From a virus (lineage: Duplodnaviria > Caudoviricetes): a stretch of 64,000 nt of DNA. Below the pieces are notes generated by a model. It did no database searches. It was not told where the DNA came from and saw only the letters and a program-made list of their open reading frames with translations. Where the stretch lies: positions 1 through 64,000 of the IMG/VR virus record IMGVR_UViG_2565956658_000004; one strand, 5' to 3'. Shown in pieces: positions 39,221-50,300 of the stretch; the first letter of the stretch is position 1, and every line of letters starts with the position of its first letter. Made by a program: the position numbers and the translations under genes.

Positions 39221-41134
39221 ATGTATGGTATGCAGCGCCCAAAAAAGGATGGTCAATCTGAACTCATTGAGGGTCAGGGCACAGGAACCTCCGACAGTAT
39301 TAAAAAAAATGTACCCGCAGGAAGCTTTATCATGCCTGCAGATTCAACACAAAAAATCGGTCCCAAAAACCTTAAAAAATTGGGAAGTCCCCAGCCAGTT
39401 AATCTTAGTAAAGGTGAGTTCCAAATCCCTCCTGAACAGGTTCATCAGGTTGGTGTGCAAGCCTTGGAACAAATGAAAGATGCCACGCATACACCTGTTC
39501 CAGATCAACAGGGTTTTGGCTTTAAGCCTGATGCAACAAAGTCACAAGTCCAACTACAACGTGAACCACCTAAACTGGGTTTCAATGCGGCAGCTTTAGG
39601 AAATTATCAGAACAATATTAAGATTGGTGAGAGTGGTAGGCCTGAACTGTTCTTTGCTAGTGGTGGTGTTGTGCCTCATGTAGATGATGACTTAAGTAAA
39701 TCATTTACAGCGGACGTTCTACGAAATTCTAGGGATAATGCAGCAAACAGTTTTAGCCAAGGAAATTATGCGCGTGGGGTAGGAGAAGCAGTGCGTGGAG
39801 TTGTTGGATCAGTCCCAGCAGCTGCATATGATGTTTCAAAATCAGCTTATAACACTTTTGGTCGACCAGTCGCCAATGCAATTGATGGCTTTTTAGGTAT
39901 GGGGGAGAACCAACAAACAGCTATTGCTAAGCCAGACCCTACCAAATTAGCAACAAATGTTACACCAGCAGCAGCCAAACCTGATCCTGCAAAAACAAGT
40001 AATGCTGCAACCTCGGCAACCCAACCTAATTTAATGACAGGCGTAACTCCAGAAAAAGCAGCAACAGCAGTTTCATCTGATTTATCTCAGCAGAATACGA
40101 AGCAACCAGTTTCAATGTTTACAGATACATCGAATCAGAATACTGCACAATCTGCTGGCAATCCTTACGCTATTCAGTCAAAGGGCAATAGTTTTAGTTA
40201 TGCTGATCCACAAGCCGCAGCGCAGGCACGGGCAGCAGGTGTTCCTGAACTTCAAGGCTCAGGTATTCAAACTGGATTAGGTATCCGTGGTGTTAAAGAT
40301 TTTATGGCAAATACCCGTGAGATGGGAGCCAGTGATCAGCAAATACAAGCTGCTCTGGCTCGTCGAGAAATGAATTTGGGAATGCAGGGTTTTGGTGGAA
40401 TTGCTCGACAGCTACAAGTACAAGAGCGTACACCAGCGCAAGAAGCACAGTTGCAGACCGAAATCCAAAGAATAAGCACTCCAATAGCAGGTGCACGTGG
40501 CTTAACAGCAAGCCAGCGTAACCAGATTAATGACCTACAACAGGGTTATTCAAACCGTGAAAATGACGTTTATAAAACTTATGCTAACAATGCAGCAGCT
40601 TTACAGCGTGAAGCTATGGGGCAGGTAGGACAGAATTATCGTGCTGAGTTAGGTGAGCAAGGCGCAAATAGTCGTTTTAACTCTAATTTAGAACTTGATG
40701 CTCAGAAATTTAATGCTACGAATGATCTGGCCAACCGTCAATTTAGTGCTGAACAGTTAAGCAACATGCCAGCACGTATGAAGCAACAAGCTGAATTGAA
40801 TTTGCTTCAACAGTATGATGCAGCTCAGACTGATGAAGAAAGAAAGCCGATTCTTGAAAAATTAGGGATGTTGAGAGGGCAGGCGCAGCAGCAAGTTGGT
40901 AAACTTACACCATTTAAGCAGTATGAAGTGGTTGATGCAAAAGGTAATGTGACACAGCCAGCAAAAGATTATTTCATTGATGAACAAGGGCGAATTATCG
41001 ACCCAATGGCAAATATGCAGTCGCAGCAAATTCCACAAGCAGCGATTGAACATCTGCGCAAGAATCCAAATCAATCTACATATTTTGATGAAATGTTTGG
41101 TAAAGGCTCCGCTGCTAAATATTTGAAGGGGTAA
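39221..41134 (+). CDS. DNA ejection (internal virion) protein
   Basis: Gln/Ala-rich; GQGTGTSDSI...LSKGEF N-terminus; C-terminal AIEHLRKNP...FDEMFGKG. Confidence 0.7.
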   Translation: MYGMQRPKKDGQSELIEGQGTGTSDSIKKNVPAGSFIMPADSTQKIGPKNLKKLGSPQPVNLSKGEFQIPPEQVHQVGVQALEQMKDATHTPVPDQQGFGFKPDATKSQVQLQREPPKLGFNAAALGNYQNNIKIGESGRPELFFASGGVVPHVDDDLSKSFTADVLRNSRDNAANSFSQGNYARGVGEAVRGVVGSVPAAAYDVSKSAYNTFGRPVANAIDGFLGMGENQQTAIAKPDPTKLATNVTPAAAKPDPAKTSNAATSATQPNLMTGVTPEKAATAVSSDLSQQNTKQPVSMFTDTSNQNTAQSAGNPYAIQSKGNSFSYADPQAAAQARAAGVPELQGSGIQTGLGIRGVKDFMANTREMGASDQQIQAALARREMNLGMQGFGGIARQLQVQERTPAQEAQLQTEIQRISTPIAGARGLTASQRNQINDLQQGYSNRENDVYKTYANNAAALQREAMGQVGQNYRAELGEQGANSRFNSNLELDAQKFNATNDLANRQFSAEQLSNMPARMKQQAELNLLQQYDAAQTDEERKPILEKLGMLRGQAQQQVGKLTPFKQYEVVDAKGNVTQPAKDYFIDEQGRIIDPMANMQSQQIPQAAIEHLRKNPNQSTYFDEMFGKGSAAKYLKG

Positions 41135-44415: not shown

Positions 44416-44503
44416 TTTCTAAATCATCTGTGAGATGAACAACCATGGGTAAATCGCAATCGTATTCAACAAACTTTTCTAAATCATCTATGCGATGAAC
44501 AAC
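44416..44503 (-). CRISPR. Type I-F mini-array: two 28-nt repeats and one 32-nt spacer, no cas genes
   Basis: Minus strand: GTTGTTCATCGCATAGATGATTTAGAAA, spacer AGTTTGTTGAATACGATTGCGATTTACCCATG, GTTGTTCATCTCACAGATGATTTAGAAA; TCATC/GATGA hairpin and TTTAGAAA handle. Confidence 0.9.
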
Positions 44504-45706: not shown

Positions 45707-46069
45707 ATGGCTAGAAATCTTGATGTTGAATACAAGATGCGTATGACGCAAGAGCTTAAGGAAAAGATTGTTGAATCAGCAAAATTTCATAACCGTTCTA
45801 TGAATGCTGATATTGTTGCGAGAATTGAACAAAGTTTTGAGCCTGATTTTTTTAAAATAACAAAATTGAATGACTTAGAAGAACCCGCAGCCTCCATCGA
45901 AATTGGTGCTATAACAATTGGTTTGTATGAATCTCAATACAAAGAGATCAAACTAACGCAACTAGGTCTTAATTATTGGCTCTTAAGTTACCATGCTGTT
46001 TTGTGTCATCTAAGAGATGAGAGTGCCAAGCAACTTATTGAGCTGGGTTGTGCCTACACCACATTGTAA
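45707..46069 (+). CDS. Arc/Mnt-family repressor
   Basis: YKMRMTQELKEKIVESAKFHNRSMNADIVARIE. Confidence 0.85.
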   Translation: MARNLDVEYKMRMTQELKEKIVESAKFHNRSMNADIVARIEQSFEPDFFKITKLNDLEEPAASIEIGAITIGLYESQYKEIKLTQLGLNYWLLSYHAVLCHLRDESAKQLIELGCAYTTL

Positions 46070-46118
46070 ATCTAGATTTTAAAGAGGATATAAACATATT
46101 CAGTATTTTAAATCATGA

Positions 46119-47249
46119 TTAATTACACTGCACCATACCACCAATATCTCGACACACCCCACCATTTTGCTGAAAATAAGTGCCATTATTGCCTGCATAT
46201 CGGTTGCCTTGGTTATCCCAACACCCTGATCCATCGCAACTCGTCATATGCGTGGACTGTGGTGCTGGAGCGGGGGTGGTCATTGGTGTTGAGTTGTTGA
46301 TGGTAGTGTAATCATCGTAACGAGTTTTAGAACTTGAGTAGCTGTCGGTATTTTGATAATAATCGTTTGAAGTTAGAGAGCTTGTATCCTCTGTAGAGCG
46401 TGTACGATAAACGTACTTATTGCTATTGCTGTCATCGTATGAATGGTAATTGTTTGAATAACTTGACGTAGTTCCCAAATTATTATTTTGTCTTTCTTGT
46501 TGAGGTGGTGTGGTTGTTCCGTTATTCAAATCCATTTCCCGAGGCTTCACATCATGATTCTGTGGGTTTTGTTGCACAAACTGAGCAAAAGGGTTTTCTT
46601 CTTTCTTTTCTTGTGGCTTAACAAATTGAGCAAACGGATTCTGTTGATTAGTGGTTTGCTGTAGTTGATTATCTTGAGTTGGGTTTTTCCGCTGCACTAA
46701 GCTCGAACCAACAGCTATAAAAATAAAGGTAGTAACAAATAAAATCACTGTGGCGCTAACTAGTGGTATCCACCAAGATTTTTTTTGATATCTATTATTT
46801 AAAGTTTCCTTAACATATTTTGTCTGTTTTCTTGCATAGGCGAAATACCAAATAATGATATACCAAAAGCCTAAACCTCTTGCTACAGTTGTGGATTGCT
46901 CAAGATTAGCATCGGCTAAATACGAAAGAAAATTAATGAATAAAATAAATACAATGGTAAAAATCAACCAGTTTCTCGCATTACTCGCTTCATTTGAGTT
47001 GCCGAGAGCTTGCCAATTTTTCATTTGTAAAAATGAACCGAAAATAGGAGTAAACAGTAAGCTCCAATTTGCAGCCGCATTTGGATTCCACAATTCGATT
47101 TGTTTTTTTCTTGGTTGCGGTGATTCTGTTTTTATTGGCTGTTGATGTGTTTGTGCAGGCTGAATATTTTTAATTTCTAATTTATTACCACAGCTACTAC
47201 AAAACTTAGCATCGTTACTATTCGTTTGCCCACATTGATTACAGAACAT
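46119..47249 (-). CDS. Zinc-ribbon inner-membrane protein with long polar C-terminal tail
   Basis: CNQC/CSSC ribbon, 3-4 TM helices, NPFAQF repeat, Cys-paired C-terminus. Confidence 0.8.
   Translation of the reverse strand: MFCNQCGQTNSNDAKFCSSCGNKLEIKNIQPAQTHQQPIKTESPQPRKKQIELWNPNAAANWSLLFTPIFGSFLQMKNWQALGNSNEASNARNWLIFTIVFILFINFLSYLADANLEQSTTVARGLGFWYIIIWYFAYARKQTKYVKETLNNRYQKKSWWIPLVSATVILFVTTFIFIAVGSSLVQRKNPTQDNQLQQTTNQQNPFAQFVKPQEKKEENPFAQFVQQNPQNHDVKPREMDLNNGTTTPPQQERQNNNLGTTSSYSNNYHSYDDSNSNKYVYRTRSTEDTSSLTSNDYYQNTDSYSSSKTRYDDYTTINNSTPMTTPAPAPQSTHMTSCDGSGCWDNQGNRYAGNNGTYFQQNGGVCRDIGGMVQCN
46572..46642 (-). repeat. 71-bp inverted repeat, left copy
   Basis: Reverse complement matches 47390-47460 at 70/71 positions. 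Confidence 0.95.
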
Positions 47250-47316
47250 TTCCCCACCAAAAAATTTAATAATTATATAAAGTTACGATAGAGTATTTTT
47301 TAAACTTCTTCAATAC

Positions 47317-47358
47317 ACCCCTCTAAGGTTCGACCATTTTCATTATAAAAATCATGAT
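47317..47358 (+). promoter_or_regulatory. Late-promoter motif copy 6
   Basis: ACCCCTCTAAGGTTCGAC ... CATGAT. Confidence 0.7.
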
Positions 47359-47382
47359 AGACGCATATTTTAGGAGTGCGTC

Positions 47383-50300
47383 ATGTCTGAGAATCCTTTT
47401 GCTCAATTTGTTAAGCCACAAGAAAAGAAAGAAGAAAACCCTTTTGCTCAGTTTGTGCAAAAAAGTCCTGAACAAGACAAAGAACAAGGCAAAGACTTTC
47501 TAGGTCATGCTCAAGATGCAGGTGCATCTTTAATGAAAGGTCTGGCGGCTGTGCCAGAAGCAATTGTTGGTCTAGCTGACATACCGACTGGTGGACGTGT
47601 TGGTAAATTTATTGAGCAAGATGTTGGTTTAGATTTAAAGGGAACAAAAGAATATTGGAACGATAAACATACCGACCAATACAAGGCCCAACAGAAACAG
47701 TTTGATCAAGCCGATGGAATTGTTGATAAAGCAAAAGTTGTTCTGACCAATCCGTCAATGATTGCAAATACGGTTGTTGAGTCCGCTCCATCAATGCTAC
47801 TGGGTGGTGCAATTGGTCGTGGTTTAAGCTTGGCAAGTAAAGCTATTACCCCGATTGCTGGTGGTGCCATAGGTGAGGGTGCTGTCATGGCTGGGCAGCA
47901 GGTAGAAAATATACGTCAGCAAACTGATGATAAATTATTGACACCTGAACAATCGGGCCTGTCTATTGCCACGGGTGCTTTAGGTTCATTGTTTGGCTAT
48001 GCTGGTGGTACGATTGCCAAAAAGTTTGGCTTTGACGATATTAATACTGCAATGGCATCAGGGCGATTAAACTCACAGCAGGTTGCTGGAGAAATTCAAA
48101 AAATACCATTAAAAAGTATCCCAAAATCCATTATTGGTGGTGCGATTACCGAGGGTTTACTGGAGGAATTGCCACAGTCTGTTTCCGAACAACTTTTACA
48201 GAATATTGCTTTAGATAAACCTCTGGATGAGGGGGTGGATTCTGCAATTGTTATGGGAACATTGGCAGGTATGGCAATGGGTGGCGGAATGAATACTTTT
48301 TCTGCCCCTAGTCATTATTTGCAGAATAGTAGGGCTTATAACGAACAGCAGGCTCTGGCAGCACAAGAAGAACAACGATTAGCTGCGGAATCACTGGCGC
48401 AAGAACAGCAGCAATTAACTCAACAACAGCAAAAGTTATTTGGTTTTGGCAAAGAACCTGATACATCGATGAATGTAGATGATGTATATGCGAAAACAGG
48501 TATTCCACCAAACCCTGTAATTGATGAAAGTAAATTATTGCCTAATGCGCTCAGCTATGAAAATGGTATTGATTACCAGCCACCACAGATAAATAGTGGG
48601 CTGACATCTGGTAATGAAGTACCACCAAATGCTGATGACATACCTTATGCACCACAGCAGATGCACGATACATGGTCTTTGGCTAATGAAGCACAGCAGG
48701 ATTATGGGAACTCAATCGAGTTTGGTGCACCTGAATCTAAATCCCGTAATTTAGAATCACAAATTCAGTTTAATGATACGTTTGGTCAAACTACACCTGA
48801 TCCAGTGGTTGACTACAATGCATTGAGTCCATTTAGTAATGTACAGCAACCCTTTGTTGATCAGACAAAATTATCTGAGCGGTTAGGAATAAATCCGAAT
48901 GCTGGCCCAATGTCATCAGCGGCAGCGTTAGCCGTAGACAGTGGTGCATCACCAATATTCCAGACACACCAGCCGTTGCCACAGAACAACAACCACAAAC
49001 GTTATTAACTACACAGACTGAACCAGCACAAGAACCAGCCTCAAAGCCAACTTTTGCAAGTGACCATCCTACGGGTTCCGTCACCTATGCCCAGGACATT
49101 GCGAATCAGGCATTGCAACAGTATCAGGGAGATACATCAGCTTTGACCAGTAAAGGTTCGTTTGGGCATAGTGCTGCAACTGAGTTGATCTATTCTAAAA
49201 ATTCACCATCGTACAGTGACGTTCAGGTTGAGGATGCTGGAGACAAAGCCATTGTCAAGCTGACCAACGCAAGAACAGGTCTGGTTGAGGAGAGATCGTA
49301 TCCACATGAGTTGGTACGTTTTAATCAATTTTTGGATGGGGTAAGTCCTGATGTTTCACCAAATACCCAAGCGAATGATGTTGGCACGGGAACACCAACG
49401 CAGACAGATAGAACTATTTCGTCAAATACAAACGCACGATTCAATAGTGAAACTCAGGCAACAGGCGCACATGAAGAATCAACGGGAGAAAACTTAAAAT
49501 CCAATGCTGTAAATCCAATTCAAATTACATCAGAAAAAATCGCTCAACTGGAACAACAACTTTCAGAAACTAAGTCTGTTCCACAACGAAACCCTATTAA
49601 GCAGCAGATTGGTGAGTTAAATTCTCAACTGGAAAATCAGGGACGTGCATCATGGGAAAATATGTCACCTGAACAGCGTCAGGCTGTGGTAGGGCAGATT
49701 GATACCAATATGCCTTTGGGAATGAAGAAGAGATTACCTACAGCAGAATGGGACAGGATTGGCCCAGCAGTTAAGGAAAAGTTGATTGGAGTGATGGGAC
49801 AGTCTTTTCAGCCATTTTCACAGATCGATACTAGTGCCCATGAAGCAGCAACAAGTCATTTAAACGATATACCTCAACCTACGCAAGCACAGATCGAAGC
49901 TGGTAACTATAAGAAAGGTCATGTACGAATACATGGTTTAGATATTTCGATTGAGAATCCAAAGGGTTCAACACGTTCGGGTACACGTCCAGATGGTACT
50001 GAATGGTCACACGATATGAGTGATCATTACGGTTATATAAAACGTACAAAAGGTGCGGATAATGAGCATATTGATACCTATATCGGTAATAACCCTGATT
50101 CAGACCAAGTTTATATTGTCGATCAATTAGATCAGCAAACGGGTAATTTTGACGAGCATAAAGTGATGCTTGGGTTTGATAATCAGGATGCAGCAACCAA
50201 GGCATATCAGTCCAATTTTGACAAAGGATGGAAAGTAGGCCCGATTCGTTCAATGAACATAGAGCAGTTTAAAGATTGGTTAAAGAATGAAGATACTTCA

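Follow-up and report, generated by a model that had tools for sequence, protein, structure and literature searches.

The viral sequence analyzed in this study comprises 64,000 nt of the IMG/VR record IMGVR_UViG_2565956658_000004 (Caudoviricetes), the full provirus record being 104 kb long; this whole stretch is referred to as the window in the following. It encodes a zinc-ribbon membrane protein (ZnR) and, divergently from it, the N-terminal part of a giant polyvalent protein, with plausible ribosome-binding sites preceding both open reading frames (ORFs). Each of the two genes contains one arm of an inverted repeat (Table 1), whose arms measure 75 nt, feature a complementarity of 97%, and are spaced 747 nt apart, as revealed by a repeat search. 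Within the repeat core, 71 alignment columns include a single mismatch, leaving 70/71 nucleotides and 22/23 codons identical, and this mismatch (CCG versus CCT) is synonymous, proline being encoded either way. The same 23-residue peptide is therefore present close to the N-terminus of the polyvalent ORF, where it is termed the leader, and in ZnR, where it starts approximately 16–18 residues past the last predicted transmembrane helix (160–188). The longest exact run in the repeat spans 63 nt (46572–46634), corresponding to the length of a collapsed double-depth Logan unitig. A search within the 104-kb provirus record recovered the second arm with E = 4.6e-32, which excludes a chance origin of the repeat. 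A first-pass annotation of the sequence had already described the shared peptide, the 70/71 identity, and the synonymous difference, all of which were confirmed by the repeat search and the alignment.

The duplication was also encountered outside the analyzed assembly (labels beginning with G, L, P, and X denote genomes or proviruses, loci, proteins, and sequencing runs, respectively). The ZnR cluster contains two full-length members from different sources that are one residue apart, a diverged ZnR fragment of 201 aa (P0238) retains both motif copies, and the stretch is present in runs X5 and X6 from other studies. As independent assemblies and runs as well as a diverged variant hold the duplication, it is not unique to this assembly, contrary to the outcome that the first-pass annotation had named as fatal to its proposal, and an assembly artefact was ruled out as its source. 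The identical leader occurs in G002, P0237, and P0236. A megablast search of positions 46000–49100 against phage records yielded no match. Regarding sequencing depth, the 823-nt unitig between the arms (46605–47427) reached 25.8 in run X1 compared to 45–47 in both flanks, and was level with the flanks in run X5 (26.5 versus 22); heterogeneity or a coverage bias in AT-rich sequence could underlie the drop in X1. Positions 44416–44503 contain a pair of direct repeats of 28 nt, which are 93% identical and separated by 60 nt.

Table 1. Positions of the features discussed, numbered from the first nucleotide of the window.
Feature	Position	Strand	Description
Leader copy in ZnR	46568-46642	-	Repeat arm; two leader-motif copies, ZnR residues 204-226; appears as an insertion when aligned with the closest homologs, P0003 and P0005
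Leader	47390-47464	+	Repeat arm; tandem motif pair, polyvalent residues 4-26
Polyvalent protein, first frame (541 aa)	47383-49008	+	Leader and all-helical N-domain; ended early by a 1-nt deletion near 48955
Polyvalent protein, second frame (2220 aa)	49113-55775	+	InPase PF18823, LPD39 PF18858, phrog_30335, DarB-like C-region; open from ~48954
Ejection-type protein (637 aa)	39221-41134	+	Last ~34 residues (~41030-41131) form the type-A C-terminal module, which pairs with NPFxQF-type leaders
ZnR gene (376 aa)	46119-47249	-	Zinc ribbon, helical membrane domain, disordered tail, four-cysteine end module
ZnR membrane domain	46686-47084	-	Residues 56-188; predicted kinked helix pair 56-82 and helices 85-111, 116-150, and 160-188
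Decayed KPWExxW / DWxNGxIT motif	46503-46547	-	ZnR residues 235-249, both Trp replaced; from alignment
ZnR four-cysteine C-terminal module	46122-46250	-	Residues ~334-376; Cys 338, 343, 366, and 375; beta strands with pLDDT ~70-79

The polyvalent virion protein and its leader

The polyvalent gene is located after the head and tail genes and before a lysozyme gene. Its product is giant and multidomain, combines LPD-type and effector domains (InPase, E = 3.8e-57; LPD39, E = 3e-45; Pfam), and is encoded in the late region of the phage, as is characteristic of polyvalent proteins. In relatives, the giant virion protein postulated at first pass is indeed encoded by a single ORF (3591, 2763, 2993, and 5278 aa), whereas in the window it is split into two frames by a 1-nt deletion. 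An extra T behind position 48955 results in one unbroken gene in runs X5, X6, and X7, and protein P0236 crosses the 541/2220 junction in one frame. Contigs of the probable source run X1, with a depth of 47, lack the extra T, and the source strain may therefore harbor a prophage deficient in the polyvalent protein.

The first frame matches phrog_30335 and the N-region of DarB-like proteins, and its residues 106–349 also resemble the N-region found in N4-like virion RNA polymerases, described in the available sections of PMC5512222 as involved in injection. In an AlphaFold2 (AF2) model, residues 40–210 were predicted as a confident helical bundle (predicted local distance difference test, pLDDT, >90), and no PDB structure matched this N-domain model in a fold search (E ≤ 0.001). 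The nearest named phages represent the Pseudomonas F116/H66/LKA5 group, with 37 of the 41 matching phage records originating from Pseudomonas phages, and the record of the homolog H66 gp60 is annotated as verified by mass spectrometry.

Using the 541-aa part as query, 1835 proteins were retrieved by HMMER (E ≤ 0.001), and the N-termini of the best 150 were surveyed for leaders. Most of these 150 proteins carry two copies of a short motif composed of aromatic, proline, and acidic residues, 10–25 residues apart, before a conserved Gly/Ala-rich segment. Across the 150 homologs, this motif falls into several recurring types, H66 gp60 featuring two copies of the KPWEEF type. Polyvalent proteins of F116/H66-like podophages thus begin with a tandem motif pair of many types. 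In P0236 (703 aa, encoded on a 127-kb contig), the 26-residue leader of the window is combined with a different N-domain and a window-like middle part, an arrangement indicating that the leader acts as a separate module.

Leader copies in membrane and secreted proteins

The ZnR homolog search yielded 81 matches, of which P0001–P0051 were taken as the ZnR family (n = 51). The NPFAQFV motif of the window was found in two of the 81 matches, namely, the cluster of the window and P0080, a polyvalent-type fragment; across both homolog searches, two ZnR variants carry the copy (the window's cluster and P0238), P0237 and P0080 being of the polyvalent type. Many other ZnR homologs bear different leader-type motifs at the aligned position. 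The older and commonest motif of the family, KPWExxW / DWxNGxIT, has decayed in the ZnR of the window (P0001), which matches neither the T2 nor the T4 pattern among those described below.

Seven motif patterns, written after the data had been seen, were scored on the best 150 polyvalent proteins and the 51 ZnR proteins. The first six patterns produced 72 matches in 12,000 leader residues versus none in the remaining 389,014 residues of these 150 proteins, and the seventh matched 22 times in leaders versus 13 times elsewhere. At least one pattern was matched in 25/51 ZnR-family proteins, the matches being located past the membrane domain (approximately residues 181–286) in full-length members. 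A pattern-free test, in which the 19 of 51 ZnR tails possessing the trimming anchor were compared to the 150 leaders, detected 68 common five-residue positions, while random windows averaged 14.8 (maximum 32, 300 draws) and shuffled tails 11.6 (maximum 24). The longest exact runs common to tails and leaders comprise 10–12 residues, and single ZnR tails may hold arrays of several leader types.

The pairing of ZnR and leader within one genome rests on five IMG/VR proviruses, and the contig search contributed one ZnR locus. In G000, G003, and G004, ZnR is divergent from the polyvalent gene and its motif type matches that of the resident leader; in G003, both motifs are linked by a 30-nt inverted repeat (87%) with 735 nt between its arms. 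Moreover, 80 IMG/VR loci of the polyvalent N-domain (346 IMG/VR relatives) and ten loci of a secreted protein were inspected. The ends of the homologous membrane proteins (E = 3e-8) from loci L073 and L115 copy the differing leaders of their respective neighbors, L073 displaying the inverted-repeat geometry with 587 nt between the arms. Another membrane protein, from L098, likewise ends in a copy of its own phage's leader, and its homolog from L074 contains no leader copy.

The secreted proteins, in turn, constitute a family with a Sec-type signal peptide, four cysteines, a conserved body, and a variable tail (distant members, E = 1e-22), which is assigned to the periplasm by its signal peptides. 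Their tails copy the resident leader in six out of six distinct full-length members (the L119 group, L123, L124, L125, L126, and L042), representing six motif types; the truncated copy of L113 falls outside this count. In a 9 × 9 matrix of tail-versus-leader scores, eight tails scored best with their own leader and the ninth with a leader of the same type. When the antisense ORFs of 59 dereplicated loci were compared by a Smith–Waterman scan, L115 and L042 were brought out, and the scan was too noisy for estimating prevalence because spurious ORFs in GC-rich sequence and same-type leaders of other loci compete. In summary, at least four unrelated secreted or membrane-anchored families encoded antisense near ejection genes copy the resident leader. 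The survey of co-variation in related prophages recommended by the first-pass annotation was therefore positive (G003, two membrane families, and the secreted four-cysteine family), and broader than expected.

The ZnR protein itself provided few annotation clues. PF13240 (Zn_Ribbon_1) was recognized at residues 2–24 (27.8 bits, cut-off 25; Cys 3, 6, 17, and 20), and Pfam, PHROGs, and PADLOC offered only this zinc ribbon and a single PHROG lacking an assigned function, none of the defence families of PADLOC-DB 2.0 matching ZnR. At E ≤ 0.001, the fold search matched the ZnR model to no PDB structure, and structural neighbors in the Atlas were limited to unnamed membrane-protein clusters. The tail of approximately 140 residues is predicted to be disordered (pLDDT <50). 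The four-cysteine end module is 60–86% identical to the C-termini of the DUF4124 proteins P0052–P0079, and all seven DUF4124 proteins inspected start with clear signal peptides. ZnR is not a DUF4124 protein, as PF13511 was not matched and only its last ~45 residues resemble such proteins.

In the AF2 model of ZnR, the sole beta-bridge positions among residues 1–330 are 52–53 and 155–156, pairing the segment ahead of the first helix with a loop containing five Lys/Arg residues ahead of the last helix. Given a cytoplasmic zinc ribbon, this pairing implies that the helix pair 56–82 does not cross the membrane, leaving three crossings and the tail outside. The ZnR tail is thus most likely periplasmic, in agreement with the topology predicted at first pass, which gains support from both the loop placement and the end module common to signal-peptide proteins; export of the secreted four-cysteine family adds a third line of support for periplasmic display of leader copies.

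Further observations concern the distribution and make-up of ZnR. Among 201 genomes covered by a genus-wide search, one encodes full-length ZnR and six encode short homologs without a tail; ORFs of 145–180 aa consisting of the ZnR-type membrane domain only (33–44% identity) occur in the Acinetobacter genomes G107, G111, G116, G123, G126, and G167 and may represent a host stock of the ZnR anchor. In provirus G004 (L007, 6573–7463), an inserted element carrying two transposase-like ORFs interrupts the ZnR gene, a head of 207 aa and a tail of 151 aa being recognizable. At L040 (2390–3316), the divergent slot is occupied by a different anchor with a cysteine-containing, beta-rich C-terminal domain as in the ZnR proteins P0008, P0009, P0016, and P0018, indicating that anchors and end domains shuffle independently.

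Concerning the genomic context, the genes carrying leader copies are all antisense to the late operon. In the window, ZnR is flanked by an ORF6N antirepressor/Arc pair on one side and the polyvalent gene on the other, at a distance of 5 kb from the gene for the 637-aa ejection-type protein. Elsewhere, the same divergent slot harbors DUF4124 proteins with the four-cysteine end or other membrane proteins. ZnR homologs were also identified away from phage structural regions: one is encoded directly downstream of the type I restriction-modification genes hsdM/hsdS/hsdR and beside an integrase gene (L027, 3473–10924), the other beside a 1245-aa DUF3584 ATPase (L026, 275–6062). A promoter and terminator scan of positions 45900–47600 was uninformative, with fewer promoter-like sites than in shuffled sequences.

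Candidate partner of the leader and interpretation of its copies

The 637-aa ejection-type protein belongs to a family with 808 homologs; in H66 and at most loci, the family member is encoded immediately upstream of the polyvalent protein. The last ~30 residues of the family members fall into discrete types on an otherwise conserved body. Among 50 collected pairs of leader and C-terminus, 44 were non-identical, and post-hoc patterns assigned types to 30 of these. A one-to-one correspondence between eight leader types and eight C-terminal types accounts for all 30 typed pairs, compared to a mean of 13.5 and a maximum of 19 in 5000 permutations. This correspondence spans AT-rich and GC-rich lineages and persists despite intervening genes in the window, G002, L037, and L053. 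The match is consistent with the partner suggested by the first-pass annotation, that is, the C-terminus of the 637-aa protein, and is suggestive of a contact between leader and C-terminal module, with linkage and shared descent left uncontrolled in the comparison.

A separate motif, STPxxGxxGLTxxQR, is common to the 637-aa protein (approximately residues 419–433; 40475–40520) and the DUF4124 proteins P0052–P0079 (pairwise E = 3e-6) and was found in 62 of 120 ejection-protein homologs. The DUF4124 proteins did not mimic the motif of their own ejection protein in the two genomes checked, where their motif matched the ejection protein of another phage. At L056, the DUF4124 moron possesses the STP motif and the ejection protein lacks it, the reverse being the case at L057. 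These proteins may represent a second class of mimic. In Pseudomonas phage Baskent_P6 (L015, 2581–3216), a 211-aa frame combines a signal peptide, the DUF4124 motif, STP..GLT..Q, and a four-cysteine end, and is represented in the record only by fragments and overlapping hypothetical proteins.

On balance, we favor the interpretation that ZnR presents a periplasmic mimic of the leader, which competes for the leader's docking partner and thereby excludes incoming related phages. ZnR would be an inner-membrane protein whose disordered periplasmic tail displays a copy of the resident leader. In the infecting virion, the leader precedes the helical N-domain homologous to the N4-type injection region, and would most likely dock on the C-terminal module of the 637-aa protein, or on another envelope-side partner, during assembly of the conduit. 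In the lysogen, the tethered copy would occupy the docking site on incoming ejection proteins. For phages of the same leader type, these proteins would then fail to assemble and DNA entry would be blocked, amounting to superinfection exclusion by peptide mimicry. The 71-nt near-identity would have arisen by copying of leader DNA into the ZnR tail, a direction suggested by the distribution of the motifs, and several leader types in one ZnR tail would broaden the range of excluded phages. Since a naive host does not contain the mimic, the latter cannot serve entry and would act only in lysogens or already infected cells. More tentatively, leader and C-module may constitute a modular docking code of F116/H66-like podophages, in which a swappable leader fits a swappable C-module and over which prophages and defence islands would compete by means of periplasmic decoys on unrelated scaffolds. 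Under such a code, the zinc-ribbon anchor, two other membrane anchors, and the secreted four-cysteine protein would have captured leader copies repeatedly, some of them stacking several types in a single tail.

Several observations weigh against this interpretation. In two of the five proviruses (G001 and G002), ZnR is mismatched to its own leader and located beside lysis genes, and genes occupying the same slot in L040, L053, and L074 carry no mimic. The polyvalent gene of the source strain is frameshifted, so that there is no current need in this strain to match a resident protein, and no RNA run was found to hold the stretch. Furthermore, hydropathy alone assigns two strong and two weak segments to ZnR and would allow an even number of crossings, which would place the tail in the cytoplasm. 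In the AF2 model of the polyvalent protein, the leader (residues 1–38) reached a pLDDT of only 52–58 and adopted no docked state, values at which intramolecular docking on the N-domain is not judgeable. Regarding the partner, leader and C-terminus DNA are usually adjacent, so that co-inheritance can yield co-variation without contact, and both sets of types were defined after the data had been seen.

Alternatively, the motif may bind a host envelope factor, such as a periplasmic chaperone, the Tol or pilus machinery, or peptidoglycan enzymes, by which the ejected protein docks or refolds and which the mimic occupies or modifies; phages would still be excluded, with the host as the target. The same motif types are found across widely differing hosts, for instance in the polyvalent proteins of AT-rich records from Acinetobacter and of GC-rich, Pseudomonas-like ones, ZnR tails carry several types at once, and nearly all motifs pair proline with aromatic residues, as is typical of ligands of periplasmic chaperones and isomerases; in addition, the closest named phages are F116-like, F116 being a pilus-dependent phage. 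However, mimic tails of the secreted four-cysteine family track the resident leader through six types within one family and host group, and leader types map one-to-one onto a phage-encoded module. Both findings are more easily explained by a varying phage partner, and we regard a host factor as unlikely. A role of the mimic in the phage's own lytic cycle, where it would block injection of progeny into infected or lysing cells, shield the envelope of the producer against ejection proteins that have been released, or time lysis, appears more doubtful still. It would suit the position of ZnR between the polyvalent gene and the holin/lysozyme genes in G001 and G002 and that of the secreted four-cysteine gene between ejection genes, and lytic phages such as T4 do produce entry-blocking proteins. 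Yet all mimic genes are antisense to the late operon, as expected for separate expression from the prophage, and ZnR also occurs outside phage structural regions, adjoining a restriction-modification system. This improbable alternative differs from peptide-mimicry exclusion chiefly in timing, the competition mechanism being common to both.

The inverted repeat also invites comparison with a recombination switch of the Gin/Hin type, in which inverted repeats flank the inverting segment. Here, a 747-bp inversion would swap the 5' parts of both genes in frame, since the arms share a reading frame and enclose the starts of both genes together with the intergenic region, and G003 (735 nt) and L073 (587 nt) display a similar geometry. 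The hypothetical products, a membrane anchor fused to the polyvalent protein and a short start fused to the cysteine-rich tail, find no support in the records: no hybrid protein appeared in searches able to reveal one, all full or partial assemblies and protein records represent a single orientation, and a Pfam scan of 26 window ORFs recovered no recombinase family. As Logan unitigs stop at the 63-nt exact repeat, segment orientation and minor inverted forms are unreadable from those contigs. Elsewhere, the mimic is located at the extreme C-terminus or 2 kb off across an ejection gene, where inversion would destroy genes, and we consider a switch highly improbable. The same low probability is attributed to a functionless copy, originating from illegitimate recombination between neighboring genes or from an assembly error. 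The restriction of the NPFAQFV leader copy to two ZnR variants among the ZnR-search matches and the DNA identity, suggestive of a recent event, would fit such a by-product, but the copy is present in independent assemblies and a diverged ZnR variant, lies in frame at the site where homologs bear other leader-type motifs, and has its counterpart in unrelated families with different motifs.

How exclusion proteins of prophages recognize the ejection machinery of short-tailed phages is largely unknown, with only escape mutations available for P22 SieA. At the locus studied, the sequence seems to name the target, as the putative blocker copies the peptide of the target's partner and changes along with the phage peptide. 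Peptide-mimicry exclusion, if correct, would represent a simple mechanism acting at DNA entry, give the N-terminal leader of polyvalent proteins its first function, and define a candidate contact within the ejectosome. Genomes would then predict which prophage excludes which phage, which is relevant to work on Acinetobacter and Pseudomonas phages. Should the docking code hold as well, specificity of entry and exclusion would be readable from sequence and could be re-programmed by swapping approximately ten residues. The H66/F116-type phages of P. aeruginosa laboratory strains carry the secreted version and offer a tractable test bed.

Relation to known systems

Short motifs within disordered N-terminal regions are known to dock in the periplasm in the case of the filamentous-phage protein g3p, which binds TolA, and the Tol-binding boxes of colicins, and later import is blocked when cells express the fragment containing the motif. 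These Tol motifs bind host proteins and the blocker is a piece of the same protein, whereas the mimics described here are separate scaffolds and their partner is seemingly phage-encoded. T4 Imm and Sp and HK97 gp15 are examples of small envelope proteins preventing the entry of DNA once adsorption has occurred. To our knowledge, no entry-blocking membrane protein displaying a copy of a peptide of the ejected protein has been reported. T4-type entry blocks are mentioned in the available part of the review PMC11436027. HXS, a periplasmic effector halting phage DNA entry, is matured by a radical S-adenosylmethionine enzyme, binds peptidoglycan, and was proposed to bind DNA electrostatically according to the accessible sections of PMC13128918; it involves no mimicry, and the proteins are unrelated to those analyzed here.

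With InPase, LPD39, and the DarB-like C-region, the window protein is a member of the polyvalent family, whose giant multidomain proteins are thought to be packaged and ejected (PMC5512222, available sections); phi24B gp47 was found in virions (bioRxiv 10.64898/2026.04.10.717836, available sections). The portions of these two publications at hand make no mention of an N-terminal tandem motif, its types, or envelope copies. Likewise, the literature on polyvalent proteins, SieA, F116, and superinfection exclusion, supplements and subscription papers aside and partly available as excerpts, contained no description of leader motifs or envelope copies.

By analogy, the closest known system is SieA of phage P22, a prophage inner-membrane protein for which interference with the ejection-protein conduit has been proposed, the ejection proteins' C-terminal regions being implicated (PMC10883804, available sections). 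Like sieA, the ZnR gene is located beside ejection genes and an Arc/antirepressor region, and its product is predicted to be an inner-membrane protein. In contrast, no Sie-named family was among the Pfam, PHROGs, and PADLOC matches of ZnR, this comparison being one of library names rather than of the SieA sequence, and SieA is not described in the available sections of PMC10883804 as copying a peptide of its target, the single use of "mimic" there having a different meaning. Exclusion at the stage of DNA entry is a known phenomenon. What sets the ZnR-type systems apart is the co-varying peptide copy carried on several unrelated scaffolds, and the sequence comparisons support co-varying peptide mimicry as a new logic of such exclusion.

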